Shown here piece by piece: positions 8,875 through 41,209 of a stretch of 64,000 bases of DNA. The notes under the pieces were generated by a model. That model was not told the origin of the DNA and made no database searches. It was given only the letters and a program-made list of their open reading frames with translations. Every line of letters begins with the position of its first letter. Position 1 is the stretch's first letter. This DNA comes from Candidatus Dojkabacteria bacterium (GTDB lineage: Bacteria > Patescibacteriota > Dojkabacteria > J137), in NCBI GenBank assembly GCA_041750555.1, contig JBGSZB010000016.1, positions 19,725 to 83,724 on the forward strand, read 5' to 3'. Both the position numbers and the translations under genes were made by a program.

Positions 8875-10209
8875 ATGAAGGACAATAAATTATCAGGTGA
8901 ACCTACGTCAAGACCAGTAGAAATGGTTTTTGTAAGTGATGGCGGATTACTAGGTAATGAAATTACGTACTTAGCTCAATTTGGAGATATAAATATAATC
9001 TCTGAAGAATTTATGCTTAATGAAGTTAGAGCAGCAATTTTTTCTGAGCTTATTAAAACTTGGTCTCTTTTAAGATTTAGAGGAATAACCCCATACTTTA
9101 GTATATTTGATGCATACAGTATTGCATCTACCTTAGAAGAGGAAAAACTAATGGAATATGTAAGAGATGTTGATGATATACGGTCGGCAAGGTTAGCGAA
9201 TGGCCTAAGAGAGGAAAGCGCAAATAGCGATTTAGATATGTTGGCAGGAGATATCTGTAAAAGAATATTTTTTATTGTTGATAAGATTGACCCATATACA
9301 GGAGAAATTACCCAAGTAGTTCAATTAAAAAAGACAGATATGTTTAAAGCTAGAGATTTAGTTAAAGCTAAAGAAAGAACATTAAAAAAAGCTAAGGGTG
9401 GAATGCAGGACTATGACCTTGAATTAATAGGAAGGATAAAAAAGTTAAGTACTATTCTAGATAAACTTCCTCATATACTACTAAATACAATAATACTTCC
9501 ATTAACTCAAGAGGAAAGTGACGCTATTAAAAATATAGGGAGATCAATTCAACTACATTATGATACATTGAATTGTTCTCGAGGGATTGTAAAGAATTTT
9601 GAAGAAGCTTCAATTGAATTTGATACTAATGTTTTAGAATGGATAAGAATATCAAAAGGTAGAATTGAAAGAATAAATGAAATATTAGCAGGTTTACCTG
9701 TGGGAAACACACTAGTTTCATCAGGTTCTTCTGCAATATACCAATTTGCAGAGTATATAAAAGTAGAAAATGTAAATTTTGGCGTTAAGCATGCAAAAGT
9801 ATATGCCCCATTTCAATATTTAGTTAACCTACAAATATCAATAGATAGAGGTGATATGTACGAGAACGTTAATATTATTAAAAACAGGCTATATCTTTCC
9901 CACTATCTATATGGAGCTTTAATTGCTGAACATAGTTTAGGTAACCAAGACGCTGCAGAAATATCTATAGCTTTAATAAATTCACTATCAGATGAGCAAA
10001 TTAATAAATTAATAAGTGAGTTTAATAATGATAAACAGAGAAGAGGATTAACTAAGTTAATGGTTACGCTTTTTGGAAATGATTATGATATAGGTTCAAG
10101 AAGTATATTAAAAAGAACCTGGGGTAATAACTTTGGTCATATACCTGAGGTGATTATTAATACAGAAGTAGTTGAGAATGCAAGAGATATTAATACTGCT
10201 GAAGCTTAA
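8875..10209 (+). CDS. hypothetical protein, no recognisable domain
   Basis: 444 aa uninterrupted ORF directly downstream of tRNA-Arg; soluble; no motif recognised. Confidence 0.5.
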   Translation: MKDNKLSGEPTSRPVEMVFVSDGGLLGNEITYLAQFGDINIISEEFMLNEVRAAIFSELIKTWSLLRFRGITPYFSIFDAYSIASTLEEEKLMEYVRDVDDIRSARLANGLREESANSDLDMLAGDICKRIFFIVDKIDPYTGEITQVVQLKKTDMFKARDLVKAKERTLKKAKGGMQDYDLELIGRIKKLSTILDKLPHILLNTIILPLTQEESDAIKNIGRSIQLHYDTLNCSRGIVKNFEEASIEFDTNVLEWIRISKGRIERINEILAGLPVGNTLVSSGSSAIYQFAEYIKVENVNFGVKHAKVYAPFQYLVNLQISIDRGDMYENVNIIKNRLYLSHYLYGALIAEHSLGNQDAAEISIALINSLSDEQINKLISEFNNDKQRRGLTKLMVTLFGNDYDIGSRSILKRTWGNNFGHIPEVIINTEVVENARDINTAEA

Positions 10210-10646
10210 TCTTTAGAGTATCTTCTATTAAGTAATGTTACTACAATAATAGCTAGAAATGCTAAGAAAGATAGTAATGGTATTGTTACAAAACCTAATA
10301 CTTCAAAATCAATTTGAGTACATGAAATACCATCTCCACAAGCTAAGAATTGAGTTCCAATAGAAAACTTTTGAACAATATAATGATATCCTGAAAATAA
10401 TAGTCCTGGAATACAAAGAGCAATAATATATTTAAAATTTAATTTATCTTTAAAAGATATAGCTACACTACTTAGAATAAATAGTGAATACATAAATATT
10501 CTTTGATACCAACATAAGTTACAGGGAGGTAATTTAACAACTTCACTAAAGTATAAACTTCCAAAAGTAGATACAAATGTTAAAAGGAATATAATATTTA
10601 GGCTGTTATCTCCTAAAAACTTTAGTAATTTATTAATAATCTTCAC
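10206..10646 (-). CDS. DsbB/BdbC-like disulfide bond formation protein
   Basis: PPCNLCWYQRIFMY (CxxC followed by YQR) in TM1-2 loop region; second Cys pair CGDGISC; 4 TM helices; 146 aa. Confidence 0.55.
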   Translation of the reverse strand: MKIINKLLKFLGDNSLNIIFLLTFVSTFGSLYFSEVVKLPPCNLCWYQRIFMYSLFILSSVAISFKDKLNFKYIIALCIPGLLFSGYHYIVQKFSIGTQFLACGDGISCTQIDFEVLGFVTIPLLSFLAFLAIIVVTLLNRRYSKD

Positions 10647-13093: not shown

Positions 13094-13250
13094 TAAATTT
13101 ATCTTTTACCATTTGCGTTTTTTACTATAGCTTTATACCTTTCTAAGAATTTTTCTGTTCTAGGAACTTTTCCTCCAGAATTTTTAATTCTATTTATTAA
13201 TACTTCAAGTCTTTGGAGTAGTTTAATATTTATTAAAATTTCTATAGAAC

Positions 13251-13790: not shown

Positions 13791-13896
13791 TTACAAAAAA
13801 TTAATAAGTTATATTAACACACTAAATTATTTTATAGGTTAGTTTAAAAATGGGATTGTGATATATAATCAAATATACATTTTATTATTAATATAT

Positions 13897-14157: not shown

Positions 14158-14193
14158 ACTATCATTCATAATTAATTCTGCTAAAATATCCTT

Positions 14194-15399: not shown

Positions 15400-15400
15400 A

Positions 15401-15943
15401 TTACCTCCTATCCCTTAACAACATACTTAAGAATAGATATCCAAAACTAAATAGTATTAGATAAAATATTAAATTACTAACTTGAGAATATATATTGTTA
15501 TTGTAGTAAAACGATACTAAGTTACATCTAATTTCACAAAAGAAAGAATCATAGTTATACATTCTTTGTAAAGATTTCATTACAATACTTAATATTACAT
15601 TAGAATAAAATAGAGGTAATATTAAACCTAAGAATGAATTTAATGTAATAATTACTGGTAAATGATTTAAGTTACTGTAATAACTTCTAGCAATAAATCT
15701 AAAGTAATTAATAATTACTAATAAATTTAAGAATATTAATATTAAACCAAATATACTAACAAATGCTTTAGTAAAATCTCCTCCAGTTTTAGTTAATCCA
15801 TTAAAAAAAAGTATAGATAACATAAAGAAGGATATAGATAAAAAGCTTCTAAACATTATAGAGTGATCTAACATTTTTGAATTAAATCTACGTGCTTTAT
15901 TTGGAAGTGATTTAATATTAGAAGTTAATTTATCAAGAAACAT
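15401..15943 (-). CDS. hypothetical multi-pass membrane protein
   Basis: 180 aa, 4-5 hydrophobic helices. Confidence 0.4.
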   Translation of the reverse strand: MFLDKLTSNIKSLPNKARRFNSKMLDHSIMFRSFLSISFFMLSILFFNGLTKTGGDFTKAFVSIFGLILIFLNLLVIINYFRFIARSYYSNLNHLPVIITLNSFLGLILPLFYSNVILSIVMKSLQRMYNYDSFFCEIRCNLVSFYYNNNIYSQVSNLIFYLILFSFGYLFLSMLLRDRR

Positions 15944-15979
15944 TTAAATTAGATAATAAATATATTAATTTATTATATA

Positions 15980-17065: not shown

Positions 17066-17209
17066 AAATACCTAGATATTTAATTAATATATTTCTTACT
17101 TAGTTTACAATTATTAAAAAAGTTTTTGAAGTAATATGTTTTATATTTAATATATATTACTTTAAACTCAAGTTTATTGATAAAATATTAATAATTAATA
17201 TTAAAAGTT

Positions 17210-19596: not shown

Positions 19597-19605
19597 TTAA
19601 ATTTA

Positions 19606-20562
19606 TTAATAAATAACATTTAAACTCTTAACAATTAATTCTAATTCTTCATCACTTACTTTATAATCTACGTTAACAACTCCATTACCATTAACCATAC
19701 ACATGATCCCAATTATATCATTTTCATAACCTTTAATAGTAGTATAGTAACTTAATGGAATAACACTATCTTTGTTTAAAACAATAGCTTCAATAATATT
19801 AGAAATAACAGTTGATATACCATAATAAGTAGCATTCTTACCTTTAATAATATTGTATGCTTTATCTCTAACAATATTTGTAAATTCCTCTAACTTCTTA
19901 TCTAAATTATTTGTATAGTAACTACTTAATGGTTTAGCTTTAATTAAAACTTTAGTGAATATTGGAACACTACTATCCCCATGTTCCCCTAAAACAATAG
20001 CTTCTACATCATTAACACTAACTTTTAAATCTTGAGATATGGCTAATCTTAACCTTAGAGAATCTAAGTATGTACCACTACCAAATACTCTACCACGAGG
20101 TAACTTTAATGAATTAATAGCAATATGTGTTAAATAATCTACTGGATTAGTAACCATTAAAACAATAATATCCTTTTTTATTTTATTTAAATTACTACAT
20201 ATATCTAAAACTATTCCTTCATTTTTCTTTTTTAAATCTAACCTAGATTCACCATCCTTTTGATTACATCCTGCAGTAATAACTACAATGTCATTATTTT
20301 TAATATCACTGTAACTAGAGGTTTTAATTGTAGAATTAAATAGTATTGTAGAATCTTCTAAATCCATAACCTGTGAGGTTTCTAATTCCTGATTAATATC
20401 AAGTAACAATACTTCATTAATATATTCTTTTGAGAGTAGAGAATAAGCTGTTGTAGAACCAACTAACCCTGCTCCAATAATTACAACTCTACCTGATGGT
20501 TTAAAACTCTTAGAATTTAAAGAAGTATTATCCATCTTTAATATTTTAGTAAATAGTTTCAT
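19606..20562 (-). CDS. ldh: L-lactate/malate dehydrogenase family (probably L-LDH)
   Basis: RVVIIGAGLVGSTTAYSLL Rossmann motif; ITAGC-QKDGESRLDL; GEHGDS catalytic region. Confidence 0.85.
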   Translation of the reverse strand: MKLFTKILKMDNTSLNSKSFKPSGRVVIIGAGLVGSTTAYSLLSKEYINEVLLLDINQELETSQVMDLEDSTILFNSTIKTSSYSDIKNNDIVVITAGCNQKDGESRLDLKKKNEGIVLDICSNLNKIKKDIIVLMVTNPVDYLTHIAINSLKLPRGRVFGSGTYLDSLRLRLAISQDLKVSVNDVEAIVLGEHGDSSVPIFTKVLIKAKPLSSYYTNNLDKKLEEFTNIVRDKAYNIIKGKNATYYGISTVISNIIEAIVLNKDSVIPLSYYTTIKGYENDIIGIMCMVNGNGVVNVDYKVSDEELELIVKSLNVIY

Positions 20563-20563
20563 A

Positions 20564-21637
20564 TTAACTTCTATTAATACAATTTAAAACTTCAAACCAT
20601 TTAATAATTCTATCTCTCATGCTTTCTTCACCATGTCTTATCCAATGTCTTGGATCAAAGTATTCTTTATTTGAAGAATTCTTATCATCAATACTCCCTA
20701 TCATACTTTGTAAATATTGATTATTTTTTTCAATATATGTTTTAACACCCATCCAATAGCTCCATTGCAAATCTGTATCTAAATTAACTTTTGTAATTCC
20801 ATACTTTAATGTATCACTTACCTCATTAAATGGAGTACCTGATGTACCATGAAATACTAAATTAACTGGGTTATTAATGTTTTCAGAATTAGTTAAATTA
20901 TTACTAACTAAATCTTGTATATCTTTCAAAATCTCTGGTTTTAACTTTTGTACACCCTCACTAAATACACCATGTAAATTACCAAATATTGCAGCTATTA
21001 AAAAATTATCACTAACACCCTTTAATGCATTAAACATCTTTAATACATCTAAAGGATTAGAATAAACATTATCACCTAAGTTATTAATATTAATTTGATT
21101 ATTTAAGCTAACTAATTTATCTTCTTCTCCTGCCACTCCTATTTCAACTTCTAAGAATGCTCCAATATCTTTAATATCATTTAATATATTTAGACTTTCA
21201 TTAATATTATCTTCCAGAGTTTCAAGAGAGTAATCTAACATATGACTAGAGAATAGAGGATATCCATTTTCATTAAAAAATTCTTTAGAATATTTAATAA
21301 TACCTTTAAGCCAATCAATATGTTCTCTTTTACAATGGTCTGTATGAATAATTACATCTACATTGTATATATTTGCTAATTGATGAACTAACTTAGCCCC
21401 ACTTATAGCTCCTAAAATATTAGATTCTAAGTTATCTACTCCTAATCCTTTAAAAGCTTTAGATCCACCTACTGAGAATTGTACAAATATTGGTGAATTA
21501 ACTTTTCCTGCTGCTTCTAATGTTGCAATAATAGTGCTACTAGAACTAACATTAATAGCAGGAATAGCATAACCTTCATTTTTAGCTTTTAAAAGTGCTT
21601 GTTTTAATTTATCTCCATAAAGTATTTTAGATTGCAT
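20564..21637 (-). CDS. fba: fructose-bisphosphate aldolase, class II
   Basis: AIPAINVSSS N-terminus; IHTDHC metal site; LHGVF; class II FBA length. Confidence 0.85.
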   Translation of the reverse strand: MQSKILYGDKLKQALLKAKNEGYAIPAINVSSSSTIIATLEAAGKVNSPIFVQFSVGGSKAFKGLGVDNLESNILGAISGAKLVHQLANIYNVDVIIHTDHCKREHIDWLKGIIKYSKEFFNENGYPLFSSHMLDYSLETLEDNINESLNILNDIKDIGAFLEVEIGVAGEEDKLVSLNNQININNLGDNVYSNPLDVLKMFNALKGVSDNFLIAAIFGNLHGVFSEGVQKLKPEILKDIQDLVSNNLTNSENINNPVNLVFHGTSGTPFNEVSDTLKYGITKVNLDTDLQWSYWMGVKTYIEKNNQYLQSMIGSIDDKNSSNKEYFDPRHWIRHGEESMRDRIIKWFEVLNCINRS

Positions 21638-21674
21638 ATGTTTTTTTAATTTCTTATATATATTTTTTAATTCA

Positions 21675-22346
21675 CTAATTGTTAATGAATGGTTTAGTTA
21701 ATTCTATTAGTTTGTCATAATGATTATTTGCTTTTACAAAACTAGAAGCTAGAGCAACTCCAGTTGCCCCTAACCTTAATGAATTAACTACATCTTCAAC
21801 TGTTGTTACACCTGCTCCAATTAATAACTTAGTGTTTGTATTTTTAAATGTATTAATAAATTGAGTAACTGCTTCAGGTCTAGTTGTAACTGATATACCA
21901 CTACCTATTAAATCTTGGGGCTCATATATTAAATACTCTGGATTTGTTTTAATTAATTCCTGAGCCTCACTAACACTTTCAGTAAATACCATTAACTTTA
22001 AACCCCTGGATTGAATATTTATTATTTCCTCTATATCTAACTCACTTTTACATTCAGAATGGTTATAGAGTGAATATTTAACACCCAAAGATAATAAATT
22101 TTCTACAACTATTGCACCTGTAGATTGTCCCTCTAATTTACTACTTACATTTTGAGAAACAAAATGAATATTTGGATATTTATTAATAACTTCAGAGAGA
22201 TAAATTAAGGGTGGAGCAATAAATAATTTATTACTATCACGATTAAACATTGGGTAATCAGTTACAAATCTACTCACTTCATCTAGCATTTTAAATAGGG
22301 TATCAGCATTTGATTCGGAGTAGGTTTTTAAATTTAAAATTAACAT
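21675..22346 (-). CDS. tpiA: triosephosphate isomerase, short archaeal-type
   Basis: ILNLKTYSES N-terminus; YNHSECK (HSER-like); IYEPQDLIGSG (YEPxxxIGTG); GVALASSFVKA; 223 aa is the archaeal-type length. Confidence 0.7.
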   Translation of the reverse strand: MLILNLKTYSESNADTLFKMLDEVSRFVTDYPMFNRDSNKLFIAPPLIYLSEVINKYPNIHFVSQNVSSKLEGQSTGAIVVENLLSLGVKYSLYNHSECKSELDIEEIINIQSRGLKLMVFTESVSEAQELIKTNPEYLIYEPQDLIGSGISVTTRPEAVTQFINTFKNTNTKLLIGAGVTTVEDVVNSLRLGATGVALASSFVKANNHYDKLIELTKPFINN

Positions 22347-22524
22347 TAAGAACTTTTTAACAATAAACTCGGTATTAAATATATCTAATATCTTTAATAC
22401 ATATTCATAATATTACTAAACATGAAATAATTAAAGTCATACTTTAATTTAAAAAGATAATCTACTAGCTAATATTTTAAATTTTAAGTAATATGACAAC
22501 TAAAGTACTTATTAAATTTTTTAT

Positions 22525-22938
22525 ATGGCAGATGATAATGTTTCAGATTTATTAACTAATGAGAATCTAGATAAGGTTGAAGAATATTTTAAATTAAAGG
22601 GAGTAATGAGAACCTTAAGAAATGATTTAAAAGATTTAAAAGCTCAATCTGAAGATTATGCTGAATTAACAAAAATTGTTAAAAAAGCTAAAGAATTAAG
22701 AGATAAGATTAAAGAGGATGAAAATATTAGAAATATAACTGAAAAATTAGAAGTAACTAAAGAGAGAGCTGAACTATTAAAAGAACTAATTAGAATAGAA
22801 CTTTTAGAAACTGCTCAAGAAGAAGTTAAGAGAAATGGTAGAAAGTTAAAGATTGTAAATATTCTTAAAGAGATGAAAGATGAAGATGATAAAAAGAAGA
22901 GTAAGTTTAAAGGTGGTAAATCAATATTTAGATCGTGA
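22525..22938 (+). CDS. K/E-rich coiled-coil protein
   Basis: 137 aa, heptad-like charged sequence; TGA stop. Confidence 0.4.
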   Translation: MADDNVSDLLTNENLDKVEEYFKLKGVMRTLRNDLKDLKAQSEDYAELTKIVKKAKELRDKIKEDENIRNITEKLEVTKERAELLKELIRIELLETAQEEVKRNGRKLKIVNILKEMKDEDDKKKSKFKGGKSIFRS

Positions 22939-22970
22939 GTTTGAATAATAAATTTGTGATTTAGGTTTTA

Positions 22971-23711
22971 ATGAGAAAGTTTAGTGCTTATGAAATTAAT
23001 CTATTATCCCGTTATGGAATAGATTATCAAAGTGTAGATGATTTAAATATTCCAGTTGAATATATTATTGGTACCGCAATTTTTTGTGAAAATGAGTTTT
23101 TTGTTAATGAATCTACATTAATTCCAAGAATAGAGAGCGAATTTTTAATTGAATTAGCTCTTAGAGATATCTGTAATAAAGAGTTTAAAGATATTAAATA
23201 TATTGATATTGGAACAGGAAGTGGAGCTATTGGATTAACTTTTGCTATTGAATTAACAAGAAGGCATATTAATTTTGAAGGGACTTTAAGTGATATTTCA
23301 GATAAAGCCCTAAAGATTACTAAAAAGAATTTAAATAATTTAAAAAAATATATTAATGGGGATATTAATATTTTAAATTCAAATCTATTCTCAAATATTC
23401 CAAAAATTAAATTTAAATATATATTTGCTAATCTTCCATATATTCCAAGTAGTAGAATATATAACTTACCTGTAAGCGTTAAAGGATACGAACCTCTTAA
23501 TGCTCTTGATGGAGGAGAGGATGGATTAAATTTAATTAGAGAGTTATTAAATGTAGCATCTAAGTTTTTAGAAGATGATGGTTTAATTTTGCTAGAGGTT
23601 GATGATTCTCACACTTCTAAATATATTGATGAATTTAAGAGTAATTGGGATATATCTATTAAAAATGATTTTAATGGGAAGAATAGATATTGGTTGTGTA
23701 GAAAAAAGTAA
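22971..23711 (+). CDS. HemK/PrmC-family N5-glutamine (protein or RNA) methyltransferase
   Basis: IDIGTGSGAIG SAM motif and NLPYIP (NPPY-type) motif. Confidence 0.7.
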   Translation: MRKFSAYEINLLSRYGIDYQSVDDLNIPVEYIIGTAIFCENEFFVNESTLIPRIESEFLIELALRDICNKEFKDIKYIDIGTGSGAIGLTFAIELTRRHINFEGTLSDISDKALKITKKNLNNLKKYINGDINILNSNLFSNIPKIKFKYIFANLPYIPSSRIYNLPVSVKGYEPLNALDGGEDGLNLIRELLNVASKFLEDDGLILLEVDDSHTSKYIDEFKSNWDISIKNDFNGKNRYWLCRKK

Positions 23712-23832
23712 TCTCCTTTAAATACTATATGTTTAATATTTCTATATATATCTTAACCCCATAGTAATTATTTAATTTACAATATATTTTTAAACACTTA
23801 GACTAAAGAACATAGTAATTATCTTTCAAACT

Positions 23833-25494
23833 ATGTTTAATCCTAAATACATTTTTATATCTGGCGGCGTAATTTCAGGTCTTGGTAAGGGAGTAGCAGC
23901 AGCTTCCTTAGGTGTGTTATTAAAATCTCGTGGATACAAGGTTACTGCAATTAAGTGTGAAACTTATCTAAATGTAGACTCAGGAACAATTAATCCAATT
24001 GAACATGGAGATCCATTTTTATGTGGTGATGGATTAGAGGCAGATATGGATTTAGGAACATATGAAAGATTTTTAGAAGTTGAAGTTGGGCATAAAAACT
24101 TTGTAACAATGGGAAAGGTATACAAAGAGATAATTGATAAAGAGAGATCAATGGGATATGAGGGAAGAACAGTAGATGCAATTCCTGAAATACCAAATAA
24201 AATAATTGAAAAGATTAGAGAGGCTTCAAAAGACTTTGATATTTGTTTAGTTGAATTGGGGGGAACTGCGGGTGAATATCAAAACGTATATAACTATGAG
24301 GCTGCTAGGATGATGAAGTTAGAGAATCCAAGTGACGTTATTCATGTTCATATTACATATGTTCCACTTCCACCACATTTAGGAGAACCTAAAACTAAAC
24401 CTACTCAGTTATCTATGAGGTTTTTAAACATGGCAGGTATTCAACCTGAATTTTTAGTTTTAAGATCTAATGCAAAAATGGATCAATTAAGAGCTAAAAA
24501 GGTATCCGTACAATGTAATATTCATGAAGATAGAATAATCTTTAACCCTAATGTTAAAAGTATTTATGAGCTCCCTATTCTTTTTGAAGAGCAGGAGTTT
24601 GATAGAAAAGCTCTAGAACTTTTAGGACTACCTGTTAAAAGATTAGAATTTAGTAAATGGCAAAACCTAGTTAGGACAGTTACAACTGTTAGAAAAAAGA
24701 GGGTAAACATTGCAATTGTTGGTAAATATATATCAACTGGATCATATGAATTACCAGATGCATATAACTCATTAACTCACTCCCTTAAACACGCTAGTTG
24801 GGGAACAGGGATAGGGGTAGATATACATTTCATTAACTCTGAAAGTTTTGAAAAAGAATTAAATAAAAAGAAGGATCTATTAAAAGGAATGGATGGAATA
24901 ATTGTACCAATAGGGTGGGGTAATAGGGGAAGTGAGGGTAAAATTAGGGCTATAGAATATGCAAGAGTTAAAAAGGTTCCATATTTAGGGCTATGTTTTG
25001 GTATGCAATTAGCCTGCATTGAATATGCAAGAAATATATTAAAGATTAAAGATGCAACTAGTGAAGAATTAAATGAAAAATCTAAAAACAAGATAATTCA
25101 TTCAATACCGTTTGATCCTAAGTATCAAACTATTAAGGGAGAAGGTACTTCAATGAGGTTAGGAACTTTCCCATGTGTTGTTAAAAAGAATAGTTTAGCT
25201 TATGAAATATATACTAAACATAATGAAGGTGTATTAGATAAAAATGGTAATTTAATAGTTGAAGAGAGACATAGACATAGATTTGAATTTAAGAACGAGT
25301 ATAGATCCGAAATGGAGAAGAGTGGATTTGTATTTAGTGGAACTTCCCCTGATGATTTCTTTGTGGAAATGATTGAGTTACCAAGAAAAGTTCACCCATT
25401 TTTCTTAGCAACACAAGCTCATCCTGAGTATAAATCTAGTCCATTAAAACCTCATCCATTTTTTATTGAATTTATTAGAGCATGTTTAAAATAG
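23833..25494 (+). CDS. pyrG: CTP synthase
   Basis: MFNPKYIFISGGVISGLGKG N-terminus; GLCFGMQ glutamine amidotransferase active site. Confidence 0.95.
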   Translation: MFNPKYIFISGGVISGLGKGVAAASLGVLLKSRGYKVTAIKCETYLNVDSGTINPIEHGDPFLCGDGLEADMDLGTYERFLEVEVGHKNFVTMGKVYKEIIDKERSMGYEGRTVDAIPEIPNKIIEKIREASKDFDICLVELGGTAGEYQNVYNYEAARMMKLENPSDVIHVHITYVPLPPHLGEPKTKPTQLSMRFLNMAGIQPEFLVLRSNAKMDQLRAKKVSVQCNIHEDRIIFNPNVKSIYELPILFEEQEFDRKALELLGLPVKRLEFSKWQNLVRTVTTVRKKRVNIAIVGKYISTGSYELPDAYNSLTHSLKHASWGTGIGVDIHFINSESFEKELNKKKDLLKGMDGIIVPIGWGNRGSEGKIRAIEYARVKKVPYLGLCFGMQLACIEYARNILKIKDATSEELNEKSKNKIIHSIPFDPKYQTIKGEGTSMRLGTFPCVVKKNSLAYEIYTKHNEGVLDKNGNLIVEERHRHRFEFKNEYRSEMEKSGFVFSGTSPDDFFVEMIELPRKVHPFFLATQAHPEYKSSPLKPHPFFIEFIRACLK

Positions 25495-25608
25495 TATCCT
25501 GTAGTATTTTATTATTTGCATGTTTTAATTTAATTTTGTAATCTACTCAAAGTATAAAAACATAATGTGAAGAAGATTATTAATTTAAATATCAATATTT
25601 AACTCTTA

Positions 25609-25632
25609 AAGAGCCGGAAGGCTCTTTTTTTT
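25609..25632 (+). terminator. Rho-independent terminator
   Basis: Stem AGAGCC, loop GGAA, stem GGCTCT (extendable to 8 bp), followed by T8; ~115 nt after the pyrG stop. Confidence 0.7.
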
Positions 25633-25650
25633 AATTTTTATTTTTTTATT

Positions 25651-26664
25651 ATGATAGCTTTAGATAATTTAGAAGGTAAAATCCCTGAAGGGTTTGGTGT
25701 AAAACCATTGTTTGAGGAATTACATCCAAATGGTCATATAGACGAAGAAACATATGAAAGAATTTTTGCAACAATAAATGTAAATCATCCAACTGATTGG
25801 ATGAGAGATAATCTTGATCAAAATGCAGAAGCTAATCCTGATAGTTTACCTAATGAATTTAAAAAGATATTTGAAAATTTCAGTCCAGAAGAAAGATTGG
25901 AATTAAGTGATTGTGCAGATGTTTTAAGTGAAATCGCGAATATGAATTTTGATGAACTTAATGTTAATCAAGTAAATGAATTAAGAAGAATATATAGAGA
26001 AGCTGAGATGAGAATTATGTATATGGTGAGAGTTAAGATTAAAGAGTATTTAGGAATAGATGTAGGTAATTTTGAAGCAATTAAAGAAAAATCATTATGT
26101 TTATACGCTCTTAGAGGAGCTAAGATAATGAAAAAAGGATTTGAACCATTAGCTAAGTATAACTATGAAGTTGAAATGAAAAGATTAGTTATGATGGATG
26201 GCCATTTTGAAGTAGGGGTGGGTTATGACTTTTTTAATATTCTAAGAAATTTATCACAAGAGGAAAAAGATAGTATTGAGAATGTATATTTACCAGATGA
26301 TTGTATATCAACTGGTATGAGTCAATTTGCAATGCTTAAGTTATTAAAAGCATTAGGATTAAATAATTTAAAAAAAATTATTATTCCAGCAAGTGTAGCA
26401 GTATCTGGTGGTATTAAACATTTAGTAAGTGAAGCAAAAAAGTTATTCCCAAATTGTGAAATAATTGTTGGTGCAGGAGAAGTTGCATACAGAGTTAATC
26501 AATTAATGTATCTATTAAAGCAGGATGGTAACTTTAAAGTAGGTGATATGGGGAAATTTAATGATATGGATGCATATGATTATATACCAGAGGGAGATCA
26601 ACCTATTAATGCTAATGAATTAATTAATCAAGCTAGACAAATTGGGGGAGTAGTTGAAGCATAA
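25651..26664 (+). CDS. protein with C-terminal phosphoribosyltransferase-like (PRPP-binding) domain and unknown N-terminal half
   Basis: VYLPDDCISTGMS resembles the PRTase PRPP loop (hhhhDDhhsTGxT). Confidence 0.4.
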   Translation: MIALDNLEGKIPEGFGVKPLFEELHPNGHIDEETYERIFATINVNHPTDWMRDNLDQNAEANPDSLPNEFKKIFENFSPEERLELSDCADVLSEIANMNFDELNVNQVNELRRIYREAEMRIMYMVRVKIKEYLGIDVGNFEAIKEKSLCLYALRGAKIMKKGFEPLAKYNYEVEMKRLVMMDGHFEVGVGYDFFNILRNLSQEEKDSIENVYLPDDCISTGMSQFAMLKLLKALGLNNLKKIIIPASVAVSGGIKHLVSEAKKLFPNCEIIVGAGEVAYRVNQLMYLLKQDGNFKVGDMGKFNDMDAYDYIPEGDQPINANELINQARQIGGVVEA

Positions 26665-26688
26665 TAAGCCATTGAATAAACTCTTGGG

Positions 26689-28260
26689 ATGTATTATCCT
26701 ATCTTAATGGCTACATTTTTTAAAAGACCAAAACCTATCGTATTAGCAATAATGGATGGAGTAGGTGTAGCTCCTCCAGGGCAGGGTAATGCAGTAACAT
26801 TAGCTGACACACCTAACCTTGATAAACTATGGCCAATGTATCCTCATGCATACTTAGAAGCTAGTGGATTAAATGTAGGGCTACCTCAAGGAACAGATGG
26901 TAATAGTGAAGTGGGACATATGACATTAGGAGCAGGTAAAGTAATATTTCAAAACCTACCTAGAATTGATAACAGTATTGCAACAGGAGATTTCTTTAGA
27001 AATGAACAGATTAAAAGAGCTTTTGATCATGTAAAAGAAACTAAAGGTGTAGTTCATATTATGGGGTTAGTAGGAAATGGATTTGTACATGCTTCAGTTG
27101 AACATCTATATGCATTAATTAAAATGGCAGCTAGTGAAAAAATTAAATCAGATAGACTTGCAATACACTTATTTACAGATGGAAGAGACTCTGCTCCAGA
27201 TGCTTCAATTGATGTAATTCAAAAGATAGAAGCTGTATGTATACAAAAAAGAGTAGGTAAAATTGCATCAATTATTGGTAGAGCATATGCAATGGATAGG
27301 AATAGGAATTGGAAGAAGACTCAATTAGCATATGATATGTTAGTTAATGGAAAAGCCCAAAGGGTTACAGATTGGGAAAAAGCTATTAAAGAGTCATACA
27401 AAAAAGAGATAACTGATGAATATATTGAACCAATATTAATTGACTACAATGGTGAAGTTTATCAAATACAAGATAATGATAGTGTAATATTTTTTAACTA
27501 CAGACCTGATAGAGCTTATCAATTAACACTAAGTTTAGAAGATCCAACCTTTAAAGAGTTTGAAACTAAAAAGTTTAAAGACTTCTACTTTGTAGGTATG
27601 ACTGATTATGAGAATGGATATCCAAAGAATAAAGCATTTCCTCCTGAAAAAGTATTAAAACCATTAGGAAGTATATTGTCAGATAATGATTTAAAACAAT
27701 TAAGAATTGCTGAATCTGAAAAGTTTCCTCATGTTACATACTTTTTTAATGGAGCAAATAAAGAGATATACAAAGGAGAAACATGGGTAGAAGTTCCATC
27801 TCCTAAAGATGTAGCTACGTATGATAAAAAGCCAGGAATGAGTATGGAGTGGGTTACTGAGATGTTAATTGATAAATTAGATAAAAATGATTATGACTTT
27901 GTATTAGTTAACTATGCAGGACCTGATATGGTAGCTCATACAGGAGTAATGGATGCAAGTGTAGAGGCTATGGAAATTTGTGATAAATGTGTTGGAACAC
28001 TTGTTAATGAAGTATTAAAAAGAGATGGAATACTTTTAATTACTGCTGATCATGGTAATTGTGAAGAATTAATTGATCCTAAAACTGGAAATGCTGATAC
28101 TAAGCATTCTACTAACCAAGTACCTTTCTTAGTTGTTAGAAATGGTTTAAAGGGTAGAGAATTAACAGTTGGTGGATTAAGTGATATAGCTCCTACAATA
28201 TTAAAGCTTATGGGAATTGAAATCCCCCCCGAAATGACCGGGAGGGATTTATTAGCTTAA
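26689..28260 (+). CDS. gpmI: 2,3-bisphosphoglycerate-independent phosphoglycerate mutase
   Basis: LAIMDGVGVAPPGQGNAV and TADHGN motifs; 523 aa. Confidence 0.9.
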   Translation: MYYPILMATFFKRPKPIVLAIMDGVGVAPPGQGNAVTLADTPNLDKLWPMYPHAYLEASGLNVGLPQGTDGNSEVGHMTLGAGKVIFQNLPRIDNSIATGDFFRNEQIKRAFDHVKETKGVVHIMGLVGNGFVHASVEHLYALIKMAASEKIKSDRLAIHLFTDGRDSAPDASIDVIQKIEAVCIQKRVGKIASIIGRAYAMDRNRNWKKTQLAYDMLVNGKAQRVTDWEKAIKESYKKEITDEYIEPILIDYNGEVYQIQDNDSVIFFNYRPDRAYQLTLSLEDPTFKEFETKKFKDFYFVGMTDYENGYPKNKAFPPEKVLKPLGSILSDNDLKQLRIAESEKFPHVTYFFNGANKEIYKGETWVEVPSPKDVATYDKKPGMSMEWVTEMLIDKLDKNDYDFVLVNYAGPDMVAHTGVMDASVEAMEICDKCVGTLVNEVLKRDGILLITADHGNCEELIDPKTGNADTKHSTNQVPFLVVRNGLKGRELTVGGLSDIAPTILKLMGIEIPPEMTGRDLLA

Positions 28261-28273: not shown

Positions 28274-29161
28274 TTATCTATTTGTAGTGTTACTTGTTGA
28301 ACTACTAGGTACGGGACATCCTTTATTTAAGTTTTTAACGAAGTAGTTATAGTCAGTTCTAGTTACATATCCATCACCATTTGAATCAGCAGTAACATCA
28401 CAAGTATTTGTTTTAGGAGCTGATACAGGAGTTCCTGCAACTACATCCTTACATTTATATGGGAAACCTCCTGCAAAAGAACTAGTAAAATCTCTAACTG
28501 TTATATTACCATCGTTATTTGTATCAATTGATGCACAAGGTTGTTCTATAAACTTATCACACTTCATTCCAAAGAACTCACTAAAGATTTTAAAATCATT
28601 GTAATCTAAAACGTAATCTTTATTTGCATCCATTGGACCACAGTGTTGTGTAGATAAATATGCTTCATCTGTTGGATCACACTGCTTACCCATGTTTTGA
28701 GCTAAGAAAGAAAAATCTCTTATTGTAATTCTATTATCTCTTGTTCCAGTAATCCCTTTAGAGTCCGTTGGCAATACATCCATTGTTCCGCAATTAATTG
28801 TTTTATTAGTAGAGCTAGAAGAAGTTGAGCCTTTATTTGAAATTACATTTGAGATTTCAGTTAAACTCTCATCATTTATCTCACTATCTTCATCTAATAG
28901 AGAGGTAGTTAAACAATTGTTAACATATGTATCTGTTAAGAATAGTTTTTCATCTTCATAATCATCACTAGAGGCTAAATCTAATTCAGGAAATGTTGTA
29001 CAGAAATCTTCAGTATTAACGTATTCTACAATTTTACTATCTATATCAGTTGTATTTACTGTTGCAGTATTAACCATCATGGTTGAAGCTAGTACTCCAA
29101 CTATAAAGAATCCAAGTGCAACTGAGAGAAGTAGTATAGTTAAAATATGGTGTCTTTTCAT
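28274..29161 (-). CDS. membrane-anchored secreted protein with four Cys-bracketed dockerin-like calcium-binding repeats
   Basis: N-terminal TM. Repeats: C..DxNxDGxITVRDF...C, e.g. CASIDTNNDGNITVRDF and CDVTADSNGDGYVTRTDYNYFVKNLNKGC. Confidence 0.55.
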   Translation of the reverse strand: MKRHHILTILLLSVALGFFIVGVLASTMMVNTATVNTTDIDSKIVEYVNTEDFCTTFPELDLASSDDYEDEKLFLTDTYVNNCLTTSLLDEDSEINDESLTEISNVISNKGSTSSSSTNKTINCGTMDVLPTDSKGITGTRDNRITIRDFSFLAQNMGKQCDPTDEAYLSTQHCGPMDANKDYVLDYNDFKIFSEFFGMKCDKFIEQPCASIDTNNDGNITVRDFTSSFAGGFPYKCKDVVAGTPVSAPKTNTCDVTADSNGDGYVTRTDYNYFVKNLNKGCPVPSSSTSNTTNR

Positions 29162-33313: not shown

Positions 33314-33403
33314 GGAGGGGTACCCAAGTGGCTCAAGGGGAGGGTTTGCTAAACCCTTAGTACGGAGTAATCCGTAGCGCAGGTTCGAATCCTGTTCCCT
33401 CCG
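33314..33403 (+). tRNA. tRNA-Ser (anticodon GCT)
   Basis: Acceptor GGAGGGG/TCCCTCC; anticodon stem GGGTT/AACCC with loop TTGCTAA; long variable arm (TTAGTACGGAGTAATCCGTAGC); T-arm GCAGGTTCGAATCCTGT; no encoded CCA. Confidence 0.85.
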
Positions 33404-34277: not shown

Positions 34278-35219
34278 ATGACAAAACCTCTTTCAAAATT
34301 GGTTAAAGTAGAACTTAGGGAAGTATGGGGACATGAAGCTATAGATTTTACTAATTGGTTAGCAATGCAAGAGAATTTAGATATTTTAGGCAAAGAGATA
34401 GGAGTTGAGATTAAGCTTATAAAGACAGAGGCAAGTGTGGGTAAATTTAACGTTGATATATTAGCTGAAGAGGAGTCCTCTGGGAGAAAAATAATAATTG
34501 AAAATCAGCTCGAAGATACTAATCACGATCATTTAGGCAAAATTATTACTTATGCTTCAGGATATGACTCAGAAATTATTATATGGATTGTTAAAAATTT
34601 TAGAGACGAGCATAAGAAAGCAATTGAGTGGCTAAACGAGCATACAGATGAATCTATTAACTTCTTTTTAATAAAAGTTGAACTATGGCAAATAGATAAT
34701 TCATATCCAGCTCCAAAGTTCGAAATTATTTCAAATCCCAATGAGTGGGCTAAAGCAATTAAGACCATATCTCTTTCAGGTGAGTTAACGGAGACAAAAT
34801 TACAGCAACTAGGATTTTGGGATAAATTTAAAAATTATGTTAGGGAAAGAGATCAAAATATTAGGTTACAAACACCTCGACCTCAACATTGGTATGATGT
34901 AAGTATGGGAAGTTCTTATGGTCATGTTGCACTTACCTTAAATACTCGGGAGAACTTAATAGGATGTGAGGTCTATATCGATAGGAATAAAGATCTTTAT
35001 AAGTTCTTAATTGAAAAGAAAGAATTAATTGAAAGCGAAATTGGTGAATCTTTGAAGTGGGTCGATGCATCTGTAGCTTCAAGAATTAAAATAAAGAAAA
35101 AGATTTCAAACTTGTTCAATGATAATAGTAACGAAGAAAAATTTAAATGGATGTATGAAAAGACCATTCTTTTCCAAAAAGTTTTTATCAAACACTTTAA
35201 GGAATTTAAAAATGAATAA
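34278..35219 (+). CDS. DUF4268 family protein with N-terminal NucS/PD-(D/E)xK-like nuclease domain
   Basis: VELREVWGHEAIDFTNWL...VGKFNVDILAEEE...IIENQLEDTNHDHLGKIITYASG...EHKKAIEWLNEHT...FFLIKVELWQI is the stereotyped DUF4268 signature. Confidence 0.65.
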   Translation: MTKPLSKLVKVELREVWGHEAIDFTNWLAMQENLDILGKEIGVEIKLIKTEASVGKFNVDILAEEESSGRKIIIENQLEDTNHDHLGKIITYASGYDSEIIIWIVKNFRDEHKKAIEWLNEHTDESINFFLIKVELWQIDNSYPAPKFEIISNPNEWAKAIKTISLSGELTETKLQQLGFWDKFKNYVRERDQNIRLQTPRPQHWYDVSMGSSYGHVALTLNTRENLIGCEVYIDRNKDLYKFLIEKKELIESEIGESLKWVDASVASRIKIKKKISNLFNDNSNEEKFKWMYEKTILFQKVFIKHFKEFKNE

Positions 35220-35220
35220 T

Positions 35221-35760
35221 ATGACAATAGAAATAATCCAAGGTAACAAAGTAACTAATGAAGATTTAGAATTAATTAATAAATATAGAAAGATTAGATT
35301 ATCTAGAGATAGAGTATGGGATCATAAAATAAATAACGAATTCCATGATAGAACATTCTTTCTAGTTAGAGATAATAATCAATTAGTAGCATTTGGTACA
35401 TTAAGAGATATTAAGATATATATAAATGATATAGAAGTAACTATTAAAGGTATACAAGCAATAATATCAATAATACAAGGTATGGGTTATGGTAAATACT
35501 TAATGCAAAACATGATTAAATATGCAATTAATAATAATTTAATATTAATAGGATTTTGTGAAAGAAAGAATAAAGAATTTTATATTAAAAGTGGTTTAGA
35601 AGTATTTGAAGATAAAAACTTAAACTTTATATACATTAATGAAAAACTTGAAGAATATAGTGAAGAGGGAGATGTAATATATTATTCAAAGGAAAATAAC
35701 ATTGTAAGAGAAGCTATAGTTAGTAATATTAAGATTAAACACTTTATTCCCCATTGGTAA
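35221..35760 (+). CDS. GNAT-family N-acetyltransferase
   Basis: IQGMGYGKYLMQ resembles GNAT motif A (Q/RxxGxG/A). The track ORF (35119) overlaps the upstream gene; ATG 35212 or 35221 abuts its stop at 35217-35219. Confidence 0.55.
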   Translation: MTIEIIQGNKVTNEDLELINKYRKIRLSRDRVWDHKINNEFHDRTFFLVRDNNQLVAFGTLRDIKIYINDIEVTIKGIQAIISIIQGMGYGKYLMQNMIKYAINNNLILIGFCERKNKEFYIKSGLEVFEDKNLNFIYINEKLEEYSEEGDVIYYSKENNIVREAIVSNIKIKHFIPHW

Positions 35761-35831
35761 AACTGAATTTGTATTACAATACAATGCAATTATTTAAGAA
35801 TCATTGTATAAATAAATATTTAAATTTACAA

Positions 35832-36611
35832 ATGACCACACTTAGTTTATATATAGATGAGACTGGTAATGATAATCCTTTAAACAAGCAATCTGAATAC
35901 TATATTCTTTGTGGAATAGTTGTGTTAAAAGATAAACAAGAGGATTTAAAAATCTTATCTGATCAAATTAAATTCAAATATTGGAATCGAACTAATATTG
36001 TTTTCCACTCTATAGATATTCAGAGGAATCAAAAAGATTTTATTCTTTTTAATCAAAACCCAACTTTTAAAGATGAATTTTTAAAGGATTTATTCAAACT
36101 TTTGAATAGTGGTCCCTTCAAAATACTCTCCTGTGTAGTTAATAAAGATAAAGCAAGAGAAAAAGGATGGAATAGAGTAAAAGTTTTACAAGAAACATCT
36201 AAGTCACTTTTTAAAAACTATCTTGTACTTTTAACCTCAATTAAAAATACAAATGGAAGAATTATTGTAGAAGCTAGTAGTTCGGAGAAGGATATCTTTT
36301 ACCTAAAAGCCTTAAGTTATTTTTTAACAAATGGTATTTATAGTTTAAAAATAGACTCTTCTATGGTTAGATCTAGATTAACTTCAATTTCATTTGTTTC
36401 TAAGAAAAATAATGACATTGAAGAACAGATAGCTGATTTAATAGCATATGGAATAAAATGTTACCTTGAATATGAAAAAGGGGAAATATTTCATAAAAAC
36501 TCTTATGAATACAAAATCTTACAAGTCGTTAAGTCTAAACTATATTCAAAACCTTCAAACACAAGAAAGAATTTATTAAATGAAGTGAATCCTTTAGAAC
36601 TTATTATATAG
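35832..36611 (+). CDS. DUF3800 domain protein
   Basis: N-terminal LSLYIDETGN, the DUF3800 signature (YIDESG). The track start (TTG 35754) overlaps the GNAT stop; in-frame ATG at 35832. Confidence 0.6.
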   Translation: MTTLSLYIDETGNDNPLNKQSEYYILCGIVVLKDKQEDLKILSDQIKFKYWNRTNIVFHSIDIQRNQKDFILFNQNPTFKDEFLKDLFKLLNSGPFKILSCVVNKDKAREKGWNRVKVLQETSKSLFKNYLVLLTSIKNTNGRIIVEASSSEKDIFYLKALSYFLTNGIYSLKIDSSMVRSRLTSISFVSKKNNDIEEQIADLIAYGIKCYLEYEKGEIFHKNSYEYKILQVVKSKLYSKPSNTRKNLLNEVNPLELII

Positions 36612-37999: not shown

Positions 38000-40900
38000 A
38001 TGAAGATCCTAATAATTGAAAAGGACTTAATAGCGAGGCTTGTTATTAAGAATATAATATACAAAAGCTTAAGTGTTGATAGGAATCAATTAGACATATA
38101 TACAACCCCTAATCCACTACAAGGAATTGGAACATGTTTTGTAATTAATCCAGATATAATAATTTTTGATGAAAAAGAATATATAACTGATGATAAAAGT
38201 ATTAGTGAATATATCTCTTCAAATAAAAATATATTAATTAATTCACCAATAATAATTAAAAACTTCTCTAGATTTACTGAAGATCGTAACTATGTAGAAC
38301 ACTATTCACAATTCTTAGAGGCTAAATTAAAAGAATTTAACTTAAGTAATGGTTTAAAAATAGATACTATTGAAAAAATATTACTTAAGTTACTGTATCC
38401 ATCTAAAAAAGAAAAAAGATATAAGAATAATATTTTAAATAAATCGTATATAGTTTTAAATAACCTTTATTTAGATTTATTAACTGGTGTATATAGATTA
38501 CTTTGGGATAGGAAAGAAATTGAGAGAGATGATTTAACAGTAACTTATGAAAAGAAAACATTTAATCAAAGAATTTATCCTAAGCTATTTATAGCGTCCT
38601 CTATTACTCTATCTATACTTTTAAATGTATCGCTATCTCTTCTTCCAATACTTGGATTAGGATACTTATCACAAAGAGATGCTACAGCTCAGATTACTGA
38701 TAACTGTATAGCTATAGATAAAGACTTTAATCAAGAAATAGGTTTAATAGATTTAGCAAGTATTGCAACTAAATACAATGATGAATGTGTTAATACAAGT
38801 TATCATTGGGGATGTGGTTCTATGGATAGCAATAGTGATAGTAGTGTAGATGTAATAGATTTAGCATATTTAGTTCAAAGATATAATCAAAGTTGTTTTA
38901 AAGGTGGTGAATGGTTTGTTTCAACCACTGGAAGTCCTACAGGAGATGGAAGTATAGATGATCCATGGGATATTGCTACAGGGTTAAATAGTTTTAATAC
39001 AATTCAACCTGGAGATACATTATGGTTAAGAGGTGGAACTTACGGAACTGGAGCGGGAACTATTTATCAAACTAAATTAATAGGTACAGAAGAAAGTCCA
39101 ATCGTTATTAAAAGTTATCCAAATGAATGGGCTGTAATAGATGGAGGAATACAACAAGTAGCGCTATCTGGAGCTGCACATATGTGGTTTTGGGGATTTG
39201 AAGTAACTAATTCAAGTATAGTAAGGCCAATAGATAATGTAAGTGCATTTAGATCTGCAGGATTTGATCTTCATGGTCCTGGTACAAAAGTAATAAATCT
39301 ATATATAAATAATACTGGACATCCCTCTATTGGTTTCTGGGATAGAATTGAAGATGGGGGAGAGGTATATGGGACAGTATCTTGGGGGGCAGGGGTTAGA
39401 GATGATACTCCAGAGTACGGAGGAGCTTGGAGAGGAGCTTCAATTTATGGACAAAACACTATTGGAAATAGAAATATTGAAAACAATATATTCTTTTCTA
39501 ATTCAACTACAGGTTTAAGTACTCACGGTGTTGATGGACATGTTAATAACTTTACATATAGATATAATTCAGTATTTAACAACAACCAAGCTGATTTAAT
39601 AGCCTACAGTACAAATCACGGAGCATCAGGATTAGTAATTGATAATAATAGTTTTTATTCTGAAAGAGGAATGGCTGTAGGAAGTATGCTAATTGGAACT
39701 TTTGGAAATAATTACGATGCAACAATTACAAATAATATAGTTTTTAACCCATACAAAGGAATATATTTTAGAAAATATGAAACAATAAATTTAACTAATA
39801 ACTTAATTATCTCTGATACCGACTTAGTAATTCAAGATAGTTCAGTTACAACATATAACTCAAGTAACAACAAATTTATATCTAGAGGTGGATCAATATT
39901 AAAACTTGATGGTGTAAGTTCAAGAACATTTAGTGCTCTAACTACACATTTATCAGATTCAACCTCAACTTACTCTAGATATATAGATGAAAGCAATAAA
40001 GTACTATTAAAACCTAATAAGTATGAATATGGGAAAGCTCATTTAACTGTATATAACTTTGAAAATAAGATTACTGAGAGCATTAATCCTTCAACTTTTT
40101 TATCGTATGGTGATTACTACATTGTAAGAGATGTACTAGATTACGATAATCCAATAATAAAAGGTAGATATTTAGGTAGTAATATAACTATTCCTCTACA
40201 TCTATATGTTTATCAACCAATTACAGGAACAGTATTTAATGCTAATCATAAGCACTTTGCTCCTATGTTTAATAACTATTCAATAGAGAGAGTAAACTCT
40301 AGTAGTGGGAATAAAGTAAATGCCCCAGTATTAGTGGGAGATCTTGAATACTCAACATCTGTTTATTCTGTAGAATTAACTTCAACTACACCTAATGCCC
40401 TAATATATTACACAACAGATGGAAGTGAACCAACAACATCCAGCACTCTATACTCTGGGGCGTTTAATATCTCAAGCACTGTAGAGATTAAAGCAATAGC
40501 AGTATTAGACGGTTATGAAGATAGTACAAAGGTAAAATACAATATATATAAAATTGATTTAGAGGATGGATTAAAAGGATATTACAAACTAGATGAAGAG
40601 AGTGGTACAACAGTACTAAACTCATCTAACGATCCATCTAAATTCCCTGTAGGTACAACAGTTGGAACAGGTATTGAAAGAATAAGTGGAATTGATGGAG
40701 GTGCATATAGACTAGATGGAGCGGGGAGTTACTTTAACGTGTTATCAGTTTCAGGATTAACAGAAGCTTATTCAATATCAGGGTGGGCAAAATTAAGTGG
40801 TAATTCAGGAACCTTACTAAACATAGGATCAAGTGCATGGAGTACTGTAAACTTTAGATTAACCCTAACAGCATCTACTAATATGGTAAACAATATGACT

Positions 40901-41209
40901 CATTTTCCTGGAGATTTCTCTGGAACTGGAGTAGAAAGTAATAATTGTAACAGTGTAACTGAATGGAACTTTTATACTGTAACTTTTGATGGAACAAGTC
41001 AAAGAATATATTGTAATGGAATATTTAAAAGTATAACAACAAGAGAGGATGGCCCCCTAGTTGCGGGAACCCGAACAACTATGAATGTTGGATTTAATGG
41101 ATTTGACCAATCGTTTACTGGAGATATTGATGAGATAAGGATATATAATAGAACTCTAAACGAAAGAGAGGTTTATTCATTATTTAATCAATTTAAAGAC
41201 CAAATTTAA
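38000..41209 (+). CDS. large surface protein: N-terminal receiver-like domain, TM helix, dockerin-like Cys-bracketed repeats, parallel beta-helix (pectate-lyase fold), chitobiase/hexosaminidase-C-like domain, C-terminal LamG_3 lectin domain
   Basis: MKILIIEKDL...DIIIFDEK receiver-like; TM ~aa 195-215; CIAIDKDFNQEIGLIDLASIATKYNDEC and CGSMDSNSDSSVDVIDLAYLVQRYNQSC; DGSIDDPWDIATGLNSFNTIQPGDTLWLRGGTYG beta-helix start; ALIYYTTDGSEPTTSS; C-terminal DIDEIRIYNRTLNEREV LamG_3 end motif. Confidence 0.75.
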   Translation: MKILIIEKDLIARLVIKNIIYKSLSVDRNQLDIYTTPNPLQGIGTCFVINPDIIIFDEKEYITDDKSISEYISSNKNILINSPIIIKNFSRFTEDRNYVEHYSQFLEAKLKEFNLSNGLKIDTIEKILLKLLYPSKKEKRYKNNILNKSYIVLNNLYLDLLTGVYRLLWDRKEIERDDLTVTYEKKTFNQRIYPKLFIASSITLSILLNVSLSLLPILGLGYLSQRDATAQITDNCIAIDKDFNQEIGLIDLASIATKYNDECVNTSYHWGCGSMDSNSDSSVDVIDLAYLVQRYNQSCFKGGEWFVSTTGSPTGDGSIDDPWDIATGLNSFNTIQPGDTLWLRGGTYGTGAGTIYQTKLIGTEESPIVIKSYPNEWAVIDGGIQQVALSGAAHMWFWGFEVTNSSIVRPIDNVSAFRSAGFDLHGPGTKVINLYINNTGHPSIGFWDRIEDGGEVYGTVSWGAGVRDDTPEYGGAWRGASIYGQNTIGNRNIENNIFFSNSTTGLSTHGVDGHVNNFTYRYNSVFNNNQADLIAYSTNHGASGLVIDNNSFYSERGMAVGSMLIGTFGNNYDATITNNIVFNPYKGIYFRKYETINLTNNLIISDTDLVIQDSSVTTYNSSNNKFISRGGSILKLDGVSSRTFSALTTHLSDSTSTYSRYIDESNKVLLKPNKYEYGKAHLTVYNFENKITESINPSTFLSYGDYYIVRDVLDYDNPIIKGRYLGSNITIPLHLYVYQPITGTVFNANHKHFAPMFNNYSIERVNSSSGNKVNAPVLVGDLEYSTSVYSVELTSTTPNALIYYTTDGSEPTTSSTLYSGAFNISSTVEIKAIAVLDGYEDSTKVKYNIYKIDLEDGLKGYYKLDEESGTTVLNSSNDPSKFPVGTTVGTGIERISGIDGGAYRLDGAGSYFNVLSVSGLTEAYSISGWAKLSGNSGTLLNIGSSAWSTVNFRLTLTASTNMVNNMTHFPGDFSGTGVESNNCNSVTEWNFYTVTFDGTSQRIYCNGIFKSITTREDGPLVAGTRTTMNVGFNGFDQSFTGDIDEIRIYNRTLNEREVYSLFNQFKDQI

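Follow-up and report, generated by a model that had tools for sequence, protein, structure and literature searches.

Cysteine-bracketed modules of probable dockerin type in surface proteins of a Dojkabacterium and other CPR bacteria: a candidate docking unit of the cell surface

The modules described here have their closest known counterparts in type I dockerins (PF00404), in the Cys-flanked 'GC-type' dockerin that is already modelled in NCBIfam (dockerin_GC, NF041540) and in the EF-hand pairs of calmodulin, centrin and EhCaBP. Type I dockerins consist of duplicated F-hands, in each of which a 12-residue loop of the form D-x-N-x-D-G-x-I/V-x-x-x-D is followed by a helix ending near Gly. In solved dockerins, the Ca-bound fold is stabilised by a contact between the C-terminus and the residues just ahead of loop 1 (positions -1 to -3), an arrangement referred to as the clasp (PMC3821032). 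Dockerin-like modules outside cellulosomes are well known according to a passage of PMC9012536 that cites Peer et al. 2009, and in a Saccharibacterium that is in culture and open to genetic work, an envelope protein with a dockerin domain is essential (PMC10633639). The 295-aa protein that is the subject of this analysis is itself already tagged as dockerin/EF-hand by Pfam, its precomputed annotation carrying both PF00404 and PF13499; for the 'GC-type dockerin' we found no description in the literature. What appears to be undescribed there is a CPR-specific module of 28 residues from Cys to Cys with longer inner linkers, the arrays of such modules in anchor-only proteins, and their membrane-adjacent position in an enzyme with beta-helix and LamG domains.

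CPR bacteria (Patescibacteria) spend their lives attached to host cells, and little is known about the biology of their surface. The DNA analysed here, a 64-kb stretch which we refer to as the window, is AT-rich, with a GC content of about 24-34% and a figure of ~28% for the genome. The CTP synthase that it encodes shares 80% identity with that of an uncultured Patescibacteria MAG and 64-69% with those of Candidatus Dojkabacteria (WS6) MAGs, which places the organism in the CPR, most likely near Dojkabacteria. Positions 10655-28260 are dense in genes of glycolysis and fermentation, among which PGI and PGK were confirmed by Pfam and further ORFs resemble GAPDH, iPGM, PFK, aldolase, TIM and LDH; part of this block is syntenic with a related locus (L081) around the ortholog of a 1069-aa protein discussed below. 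Three overlapping or adjacent ORFs with no assigned function (34278-36611, plus strand) lie just after a tRNA-Ser gene (33314-33403) and may be an inserted island, and a TSCPD-domain class II ribonucleotide reductase (50190-53816, plus strand) is, at 1208 aa, long for its family and may contain an insertion.

A first, sequence-only reading of the window had placed an ORF encoding 295 aa at 28274-29161, which proved exact, the strand being minus. The features of this gene are given below, with modules scored by an HMM made without any window sequence, to which 13 other proteins contributed 37 modules (the external HMM).

28274..29161, minus strand: gene for P0001, the 295-aa membrane-anchored, module-only protein (ORF with two homologues; Pfam Dockerin_1 and EF-hand_7)
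29081..29149, minus strand: N-terminal hydrophobic anchor or signal anchor of P0001, residues ~5-27 (hydropathy scan)
28913..29002, minus strand: M0, acidic segment of 30 aa bracketed by the Cys pair C54-C83 (Cys invariant in 3 homologues)
28679..28792, minus strand: M1, C124-C161, degenerate module with a 10-residue insertion inside the Ca loop (alignment)
28559..28642, minus strand: M2, C174-C201, 28-aa module with loop DANKDYVLDYND (external HMM, 35.1 bits)
28451..28537, minus strand: M3, C209-C237, module with canonical loop DTNNDGNITVRD (EF-hand families match residues 212-227)
28316..28402, minus strand: M4, C254-C282, module with canonical loop DSNGDGYVTRTD and GC at its end (best Dockerin_1 stretch 258-283)

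The hydrophobic segment is followed by an acidic stretch, a Ser/Thr-rich linker and a Cys-rich C-terminal half. The protein has 10 Cys (3.4% of its residues, against a mean of 0.72% over 62 window ORFs), and 10/10 of these Cys are invariant in the only two close homologues, of 83% and 69% identity, that a set of 5.8 billion clustered proteins yielded. A search of GTDB representative genome contigs gave 45 pattern matches with 0 confirmed, and the gene is absent from them at that sensitivity. The Cys form five consecutive brackets (M0-M4), of which four are F-hand modules; the external HMM gives no match to the fifth conserved pair (M0, C54-C83), which is not a recognisable F-hand. Four uniform modules sharing one strict motif had originally been described, and while the number of F-hand modules stands, the strict motif fits M3 and M4 only. 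The loop of M2 has Tyr instead of Gly at position 6, and M1 is recognised by the external HMM in its C-terminal half alone (18.3 bits), the 10-residue insertion in its loop being missing from the orthologous modules of relatives.

Modules M2, M3 and M4 are 28-29 residues long, and each comprises a 12-residue EF-type loop and then an amphipathic stretch ending near Gly-x-x-Cys. M2 and M3 are joined by a 7-aa linker that is kept in relatives, with a loop-to-loop spacing of 35 residues, and as a pair span 64 aa. The loop spacings of M1-M2 (40 residues) and M3-M4 (46 residues) are both non-canonical, which implies that not every module is able to pair as in a classical dockerin; the M3-M4 linker is made of Pro, Ser and Thr and has low pLDDT.

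When the six-frame translation of the window was searched with the external HMM, only two ORFs matched (E 5.4e-22 and 9.6e-10; next best 0.52), and consecutive Cys-Cys gaps of 27-28 residues likewise occur in only two of the 62 window ORFs, those of 295 aa and 1069 aa. The second protein, for which the following features were recorded, is a surface enzyme.

38000..41209, plus strand: gene for the 1069-aa bitopic surface enzyme
38585..38665, plus strand: TM segment of the enzyme, residues ~196-222, just before the modules (hydropathy scan; equivalent in P0051)
38705..38788, plus strand: N1, C236-C263, module with semi-canonical loop DKDFNQEIGLID (Cys kept in P0051)
38813..38896, plus strand: N2, C272-C299, module with loop DSNSDSSVDVID (external HMM, 32.8 bits)

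In this enzyme a 190-aa N-terminal region is followed by the TM segment, the two modules, a Pel9A-like beta-helix (by homology), CHB_HEX_C_1 and Laminin_G_3. N1 and N2 are separated by an 8-aa linker, have a loop-to-loop spacing of 36 residues and span 64 aa as a pair. P0051, an ortholog with 40% identity, has the hydrophobic segment at its very start and retains the two modules and all four Cys, including the WGCGS[ML]D of N2. Residues 1-190 of the 1069-aa ORF (38000-38569, plus strand), which precede the sole TM segment and are missing from P0051, have no Pfam match at E<=10; they are either a lineage-specific cytoplasmic domain or the product of a start codon called too early. The expectation that both window proteins carry the same module family was borne out, as the external HMM finds both, the modules not being close copies. 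Two modules at about 38700-38900 had been called very similar to those of the 295-aa protein: their position is right (nt 38705-38896), and the similarity was overstated, since an HMM made from the modules of the 295-aa protein misses N1 and N2.

The family extends well beyond the window. When 1.84 billion representative proteins were searched exhaustively with a profile, only 45 matched at E<=0.001, of which ~14 share a very regular module with the consensus CGALDTNGDGKIDIEDFSLLSSKYGKKC, Cys to Cys almost always being 28 residues. The pattern of this 28-aa module is C-G-x-Φ-D-x-N-x-D-G-x-I-x-x-x-D-F-x-x-L-x-x-x-Y/F-G-K-x-C, and it recurs in many proteins of independent samples; the 19-unit family alignment had no match at E<=0.001 when used in a word-indexed protein search. 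The proteins fall into two groups by architecture. P0004, P0005, P0008 and P0010 consist of an N-terminal anchor, a linker and 4-6 modules with nothing else, the anchor being a long hydrophobic stretch like that of the 295-aa protein. The second group comprises enzymes and repeat proteins with 2-4 C-terminal modules, namely a GH39 protein (P0029), a BNR_4/rhamnosidase-like protein (P0043), an NHL protein (P0006) and a GH5+CBM6/35 cellulase (on L085). A restriction of the repeats to the two window proteins, which had been named as part of the outcome that would speak for generic Ca-binding loops, is therefore excluded, as relatives occur on other CPR contigs and include CAZyme-like enzymes, the kind of protein on which dockerins are used. 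The module is further a mobile accessory unit, because it is N-terminal and near the membrane in the 1069-aa protein and P0051, and C-terminal in P0052, which has the same beta-helix domain (37% identity with the 1069-aa protein over 477 aa; Pfam PF22842, Pel9A-like).

Several features of the related contigs were recorded in passing. P0004 and P0008 are six-module, anchor-plus-modules-only genes that lie in tandem on one contig (L082, 2403-3215 and 3254-4282), which suggests local duplication of the module family. In the GH5 cellulase with CBM6/CBM35 (L085, 19711-21804), the C-terminal unit has four Cys and two segments, its third Cys lying inside the second, degenerate loop. On the same contig a giant protein of 3119 aa with Ig repeats adjoins P0006, and on L087 a 2167-aa surface protein with a weak N-terminal Response_reg match adjoins P0010.

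The loops of the 295-aa protein had been read as dockerin- or EF-hand-like, and a search against PF00404 had been proposed as a check. The protein scores 27.3 bits against Dockerin_1 (PF00404; gathering score 22.9), with one segment only that covers profile positions 2-24 of 57, and 30.0 bits against EF-hand_7 (PF13499; cutoff 30). In relatives the Dockerin_1 match spans the full 57-position profile across two adjacent modules, and 16/19 two-module family units match this profile at E<=0.01, while 11/19 match EF-hand Pfam families; the N1+N2 unit of the 1069-aa protein matches no Pfam family at E<=0.01. Both N1+N2 and M2+M3 fit the type I layout of two tandem F-hand segments (a 12-residue Ca loop with D/N at positions 1, 3, 5, 9 and 12, then a helix) within ~60-70 aa. 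Among solved structures, the family profile matches EF-hand proteins (calmodulin, centrin and CaBP, E 1e-10 to 1e-7), and there is no dockerin in the top 60. Thus, the loops alone do not separate dockerin from EF-hand, and the loop spacings of 36 (N1-N2) and 35 residues (M2-M3) are those of dockerins and of EF-hand pairs alike.

The predicted structure and the residues around the loops point to dockerins. An AF2 model of the modules of the 295-aa protein has pLDDT 75.5 and pTM 0.64, and the predicted fold can be superposed on dockerins but not on the pairs or lobes of EF-hands; in a Foldseek search with the first AF2 model the top match was the dockerin 2y3n_B with a probability of 0.99, the best E of 0.043 being not significant. 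The model of the N1+N2 unit is weak (pLDDT 69), and its Foldseek search gave a best E of 1.5. Each loop is preceded by C-G-P/x-hydrophobic, which is helix-breaking and so argues against an entering E-helix, as in dockerin F-hands. The modules therefore share with calmodulin-type pairs the Ca-loop consensus, the 36-residue spacing and the best profile matches among solved structures, and differ from them in having C-G-P before the loop in place of an E-helix, in being extracytoplasmic and Cys-rich, and in their predicted packing, which is dockerin-like. Thrombospondin type 3 repeats and the Excalibur domain also combine Asp-rich Ca loops with disulfides in secreted proteins, as is proposed here; they are without an exiting amphipathic helix, and both were ruled out, as neither PF02412 nor PF05901 matches the 295-aa protein even at E<=10.

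With type I dockerins, the modules have in common the duplicated F-hands with their loop and helix, the ~35-residue loop spacing of N1+N2 and M2+M3, a Pfam score above the gathering threshold, and the occurrence of the unit in relatives as a C-terminal appendage of glycoside hydrolases. They differ in having four conserved Cys per two-segment unit (two per segment), in forming 4-6-module arrays with variable linkers (7-17 aa) in proteins with no other domain, in their N-terminal, membrane-adjacent position in the 1069-aa enzyme, in the degenerate loops of M1 and N1, and in that no cohesin was detected in the window and seven related loci. GC-type dockerins resemble them in the Cys that flank both F-hand segments and in a unit ending in G-x-x-C or GC. 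A true member of NF041540, P0018, is a T9SS-sorted, Bacteroidota-type protein (77.9 bits) with an inner linker of 2 aa (C-x-x-C), whereas the linker is 7-8 aa or longer here. The 295-aa protein scores 27.2 bits against this model (cutoff 29), M4 residues 255-282 aligning to profile positions 34-67/67; 5/19 family units match at E<=0.01, P0043 and P0013 reach 23.9 and 18.7 bits (cutoff 29), and besides these sub-cutoff scores the CPR lineage and the architectures differ. Taken together, we are fairly confident that the modules belong to a dockerin-type Ca-binding family, and we read them as a divergent dockerin variant of CPR bacteria that is probably stapled by disulfides.

A candidate source for the putative disulfides is encoded in the window itself, where a DsbB-like oxidase had been noted at 10206-10646; Pfam agrees.

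10206..10646, minus strand: DsbB-family disulfide oxidoreductase (Pfam PF02600, 55.3 bits, cutoff 22.1)

Disulfides are likely given the export of the proteins, the conservation of the Cys, this DsbB gene, and the even Cys counts of the exported parts (10 in the 295-aa protein, 6 in the 1069-aa protein and 6 in P0051), and DsbB is a candidate for the enzyme that supplies them. For their connectivity, two patterns are equally open. In a cross pattern (C1-C4 and C2-C3), the outer bond would resemble the dockerin clasp (Slutzki et al. 2013, PMC3821032), given that C1 is at clasp position -3 and C4 just past the last helix; the clasp is non-covalent there and is here proposed to be a covalent disulfide. 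Natural variants among dockerin-like domains of other lineages also favour the cross pattern, as they keep C1 and C4 alone (P0016, P0017, P0039 and P0052) or C2 and C3 alone (P0025). Closure within each module is favoured by the presence of both Cys in every module whatever the linker length (7-17 aa) or module number, by P0009, in which five Cys-modules are followed by a sixth with neither Cys, and by the confident prediction of M4 although it is set apart by a disordered linker.

No obvious cohesin-like partner had been seen in the window, and the domain searches agree: cohesin (PF00963) is absent from the exported proteins of the 64-kb window and from the ~90 neighbouring genes in seven related loci (precomputed Pfam lists), across which the module proteins have no conserved gene neighbour. 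By hydropathy scans, the only other exported, non-polytopic proteins of the window are those of 196 aa (1830-2420, plus strand) and 1411 aa (2961-7196, plus strand), and both were rejected as cohesin candidates. The former, which is anchored, has no Pfam or PDB match and resembles PD40/TolB-type beta-propeller blades, and the latter has DUF2341, Laminin_G_3, Pur_ac_phosph_N and fn3 and is not cohesin-like by sequence. The 1411-aa protein is a large surface protein with 12 cysteines.

We propose that the cell displays the 295-aa protein at its surface in type-II orientation, anchored by the N-terminus, and that the exported part consists of dockerin-type F-hand modules in an array. In each of them, two conserved Cys 27-28 residues apart would enclose a 12-residue Ca2+ loop and a short amphipathic helix; where neighbours have canonical spacing (M2+M3 and N1+N2), the prediction is that the two together form a single dockerin fold. 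Oxidised outside the cell, the Cys would staple this small, Ca-dependent fold, either by a covalent clasp of the N- and C-termini (C1-C4) together with a closed inter-helix linker (C2-C3), or by closing each module on itself. Loaded with Ca2+ and displayed on the outer face of the membrane, the modules may function in the docking or targeting of surface enzymes, and the anchored proteins with 4-6 modules and nothing else may be membrane-bound docking platforms or adaptors. Taken as a whole, this statement of dockerin-type, stapled Ca modules that dock surface enzymes seems to us slightly better than even; that the modules engage in Ca2+-dependent protein-protein docking, taken by itself, is a tentative suggestion.

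Other explanations of the modules need to be weighed against this proposal. That the repeats are a chance or low-complexity pattern with no real domain might be suspected in a genome of ~28% GC, the 295-aa protein being rich in N, D, S and T; this is refuted by the conservation of all Cys and loops in its homologues, by the relatives from the profile search, in which the regular module recurs across many proteins of independent samples, by Pfam matches above threshold and by the specificity of the external HMM for two window ORFs, and we give it practically no credence. A more serious possibility, which we nevertheless regard as unlikely, is that the modules are generic extracellular Ca2+-binding units of EF-hand type with neither docking function nor partner. 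They would then either be rigid spacers or stability elements, stabilised by Ca and stapled by disulfides, or buffer or sense Ca2+ at the cell surface. The calmodulin-type best matches among solved structures, the EF-hand families found in 11/19 units and the lack of a cohesin in the window and seven related loci all speak for such units, and PMC9012536, where it cites Peer et al. 2009, describes non-cellulosomal dockerin-like modules as widespread and their role as unreadable from genome presence alone. Generic units accord less well with loops that have no entering E-helix and with a predicted fold that superposes on dockerins rather than EF-hand pairs. The module has also been shuffled between the N- and C-termini of homologous enzymes and added to several CAZyme families, which is typical of targeting or docking rather than of a stabiliser of a particular domain, and proteins that consist of an anchor and modules only are hard to explain as spacers.

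The modules could also bind glycans or cell-wall polymers, of the cell's own envelope or of the host surface, and so tether enzymes to their substrate. Consistent with this is a speculation by Wang et al. on a Saccharibacterium, in which host glycans are the targets of envelope proteins that carry dockerin, VCBS and Fn3 domains (PMC10633639). The modules described here do occur alongside carbohydrate-active domains, namely the Pel9A-like beta-helix with LamG, GH5 with CBM6/35, GH39 and BNR_4; the GH5 enzyme, however, already has CBMs besides the module. No case of a dockerin fold that binds carbohydrate is known to us, which counts against glycan binding, and we consider this reading improbable. 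The docking of surface enzymes by dockerin-type modules remains the reading that we prefer.

A more speculative version of docking would dispense with cohesins altogether. In CPR bacteria, the module-only anchored proteins with their 4-6 stapled F-hands could act as inverse scaffoldins that capture module-bearing surface enzymes, and this capture may proceed through Ca2+-dependent pairing of F-hands between proteins ('half-dockerin' complementation) or through a receptor fold not yet recognised. We put this forward as a long shot; if true, the enzymes with which an epibiotic, ultrasmall cell faces its host would be arranged into a coat by inverse scaffoldins. The non-covalent clasp of dockerins may have a covalent counterpart in a disulfide, which could possibly be of use in engineering stable cohesin-dockerin parts. 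For the biology of CPR bacteria, the finding means that a compact, sequence-recognisable module of 28 aa is a marker of exported enzymes and of a protein family made of an anchor and modules only, and thereby provides a concrete handle for finding the ligands of the proteins that bear it.
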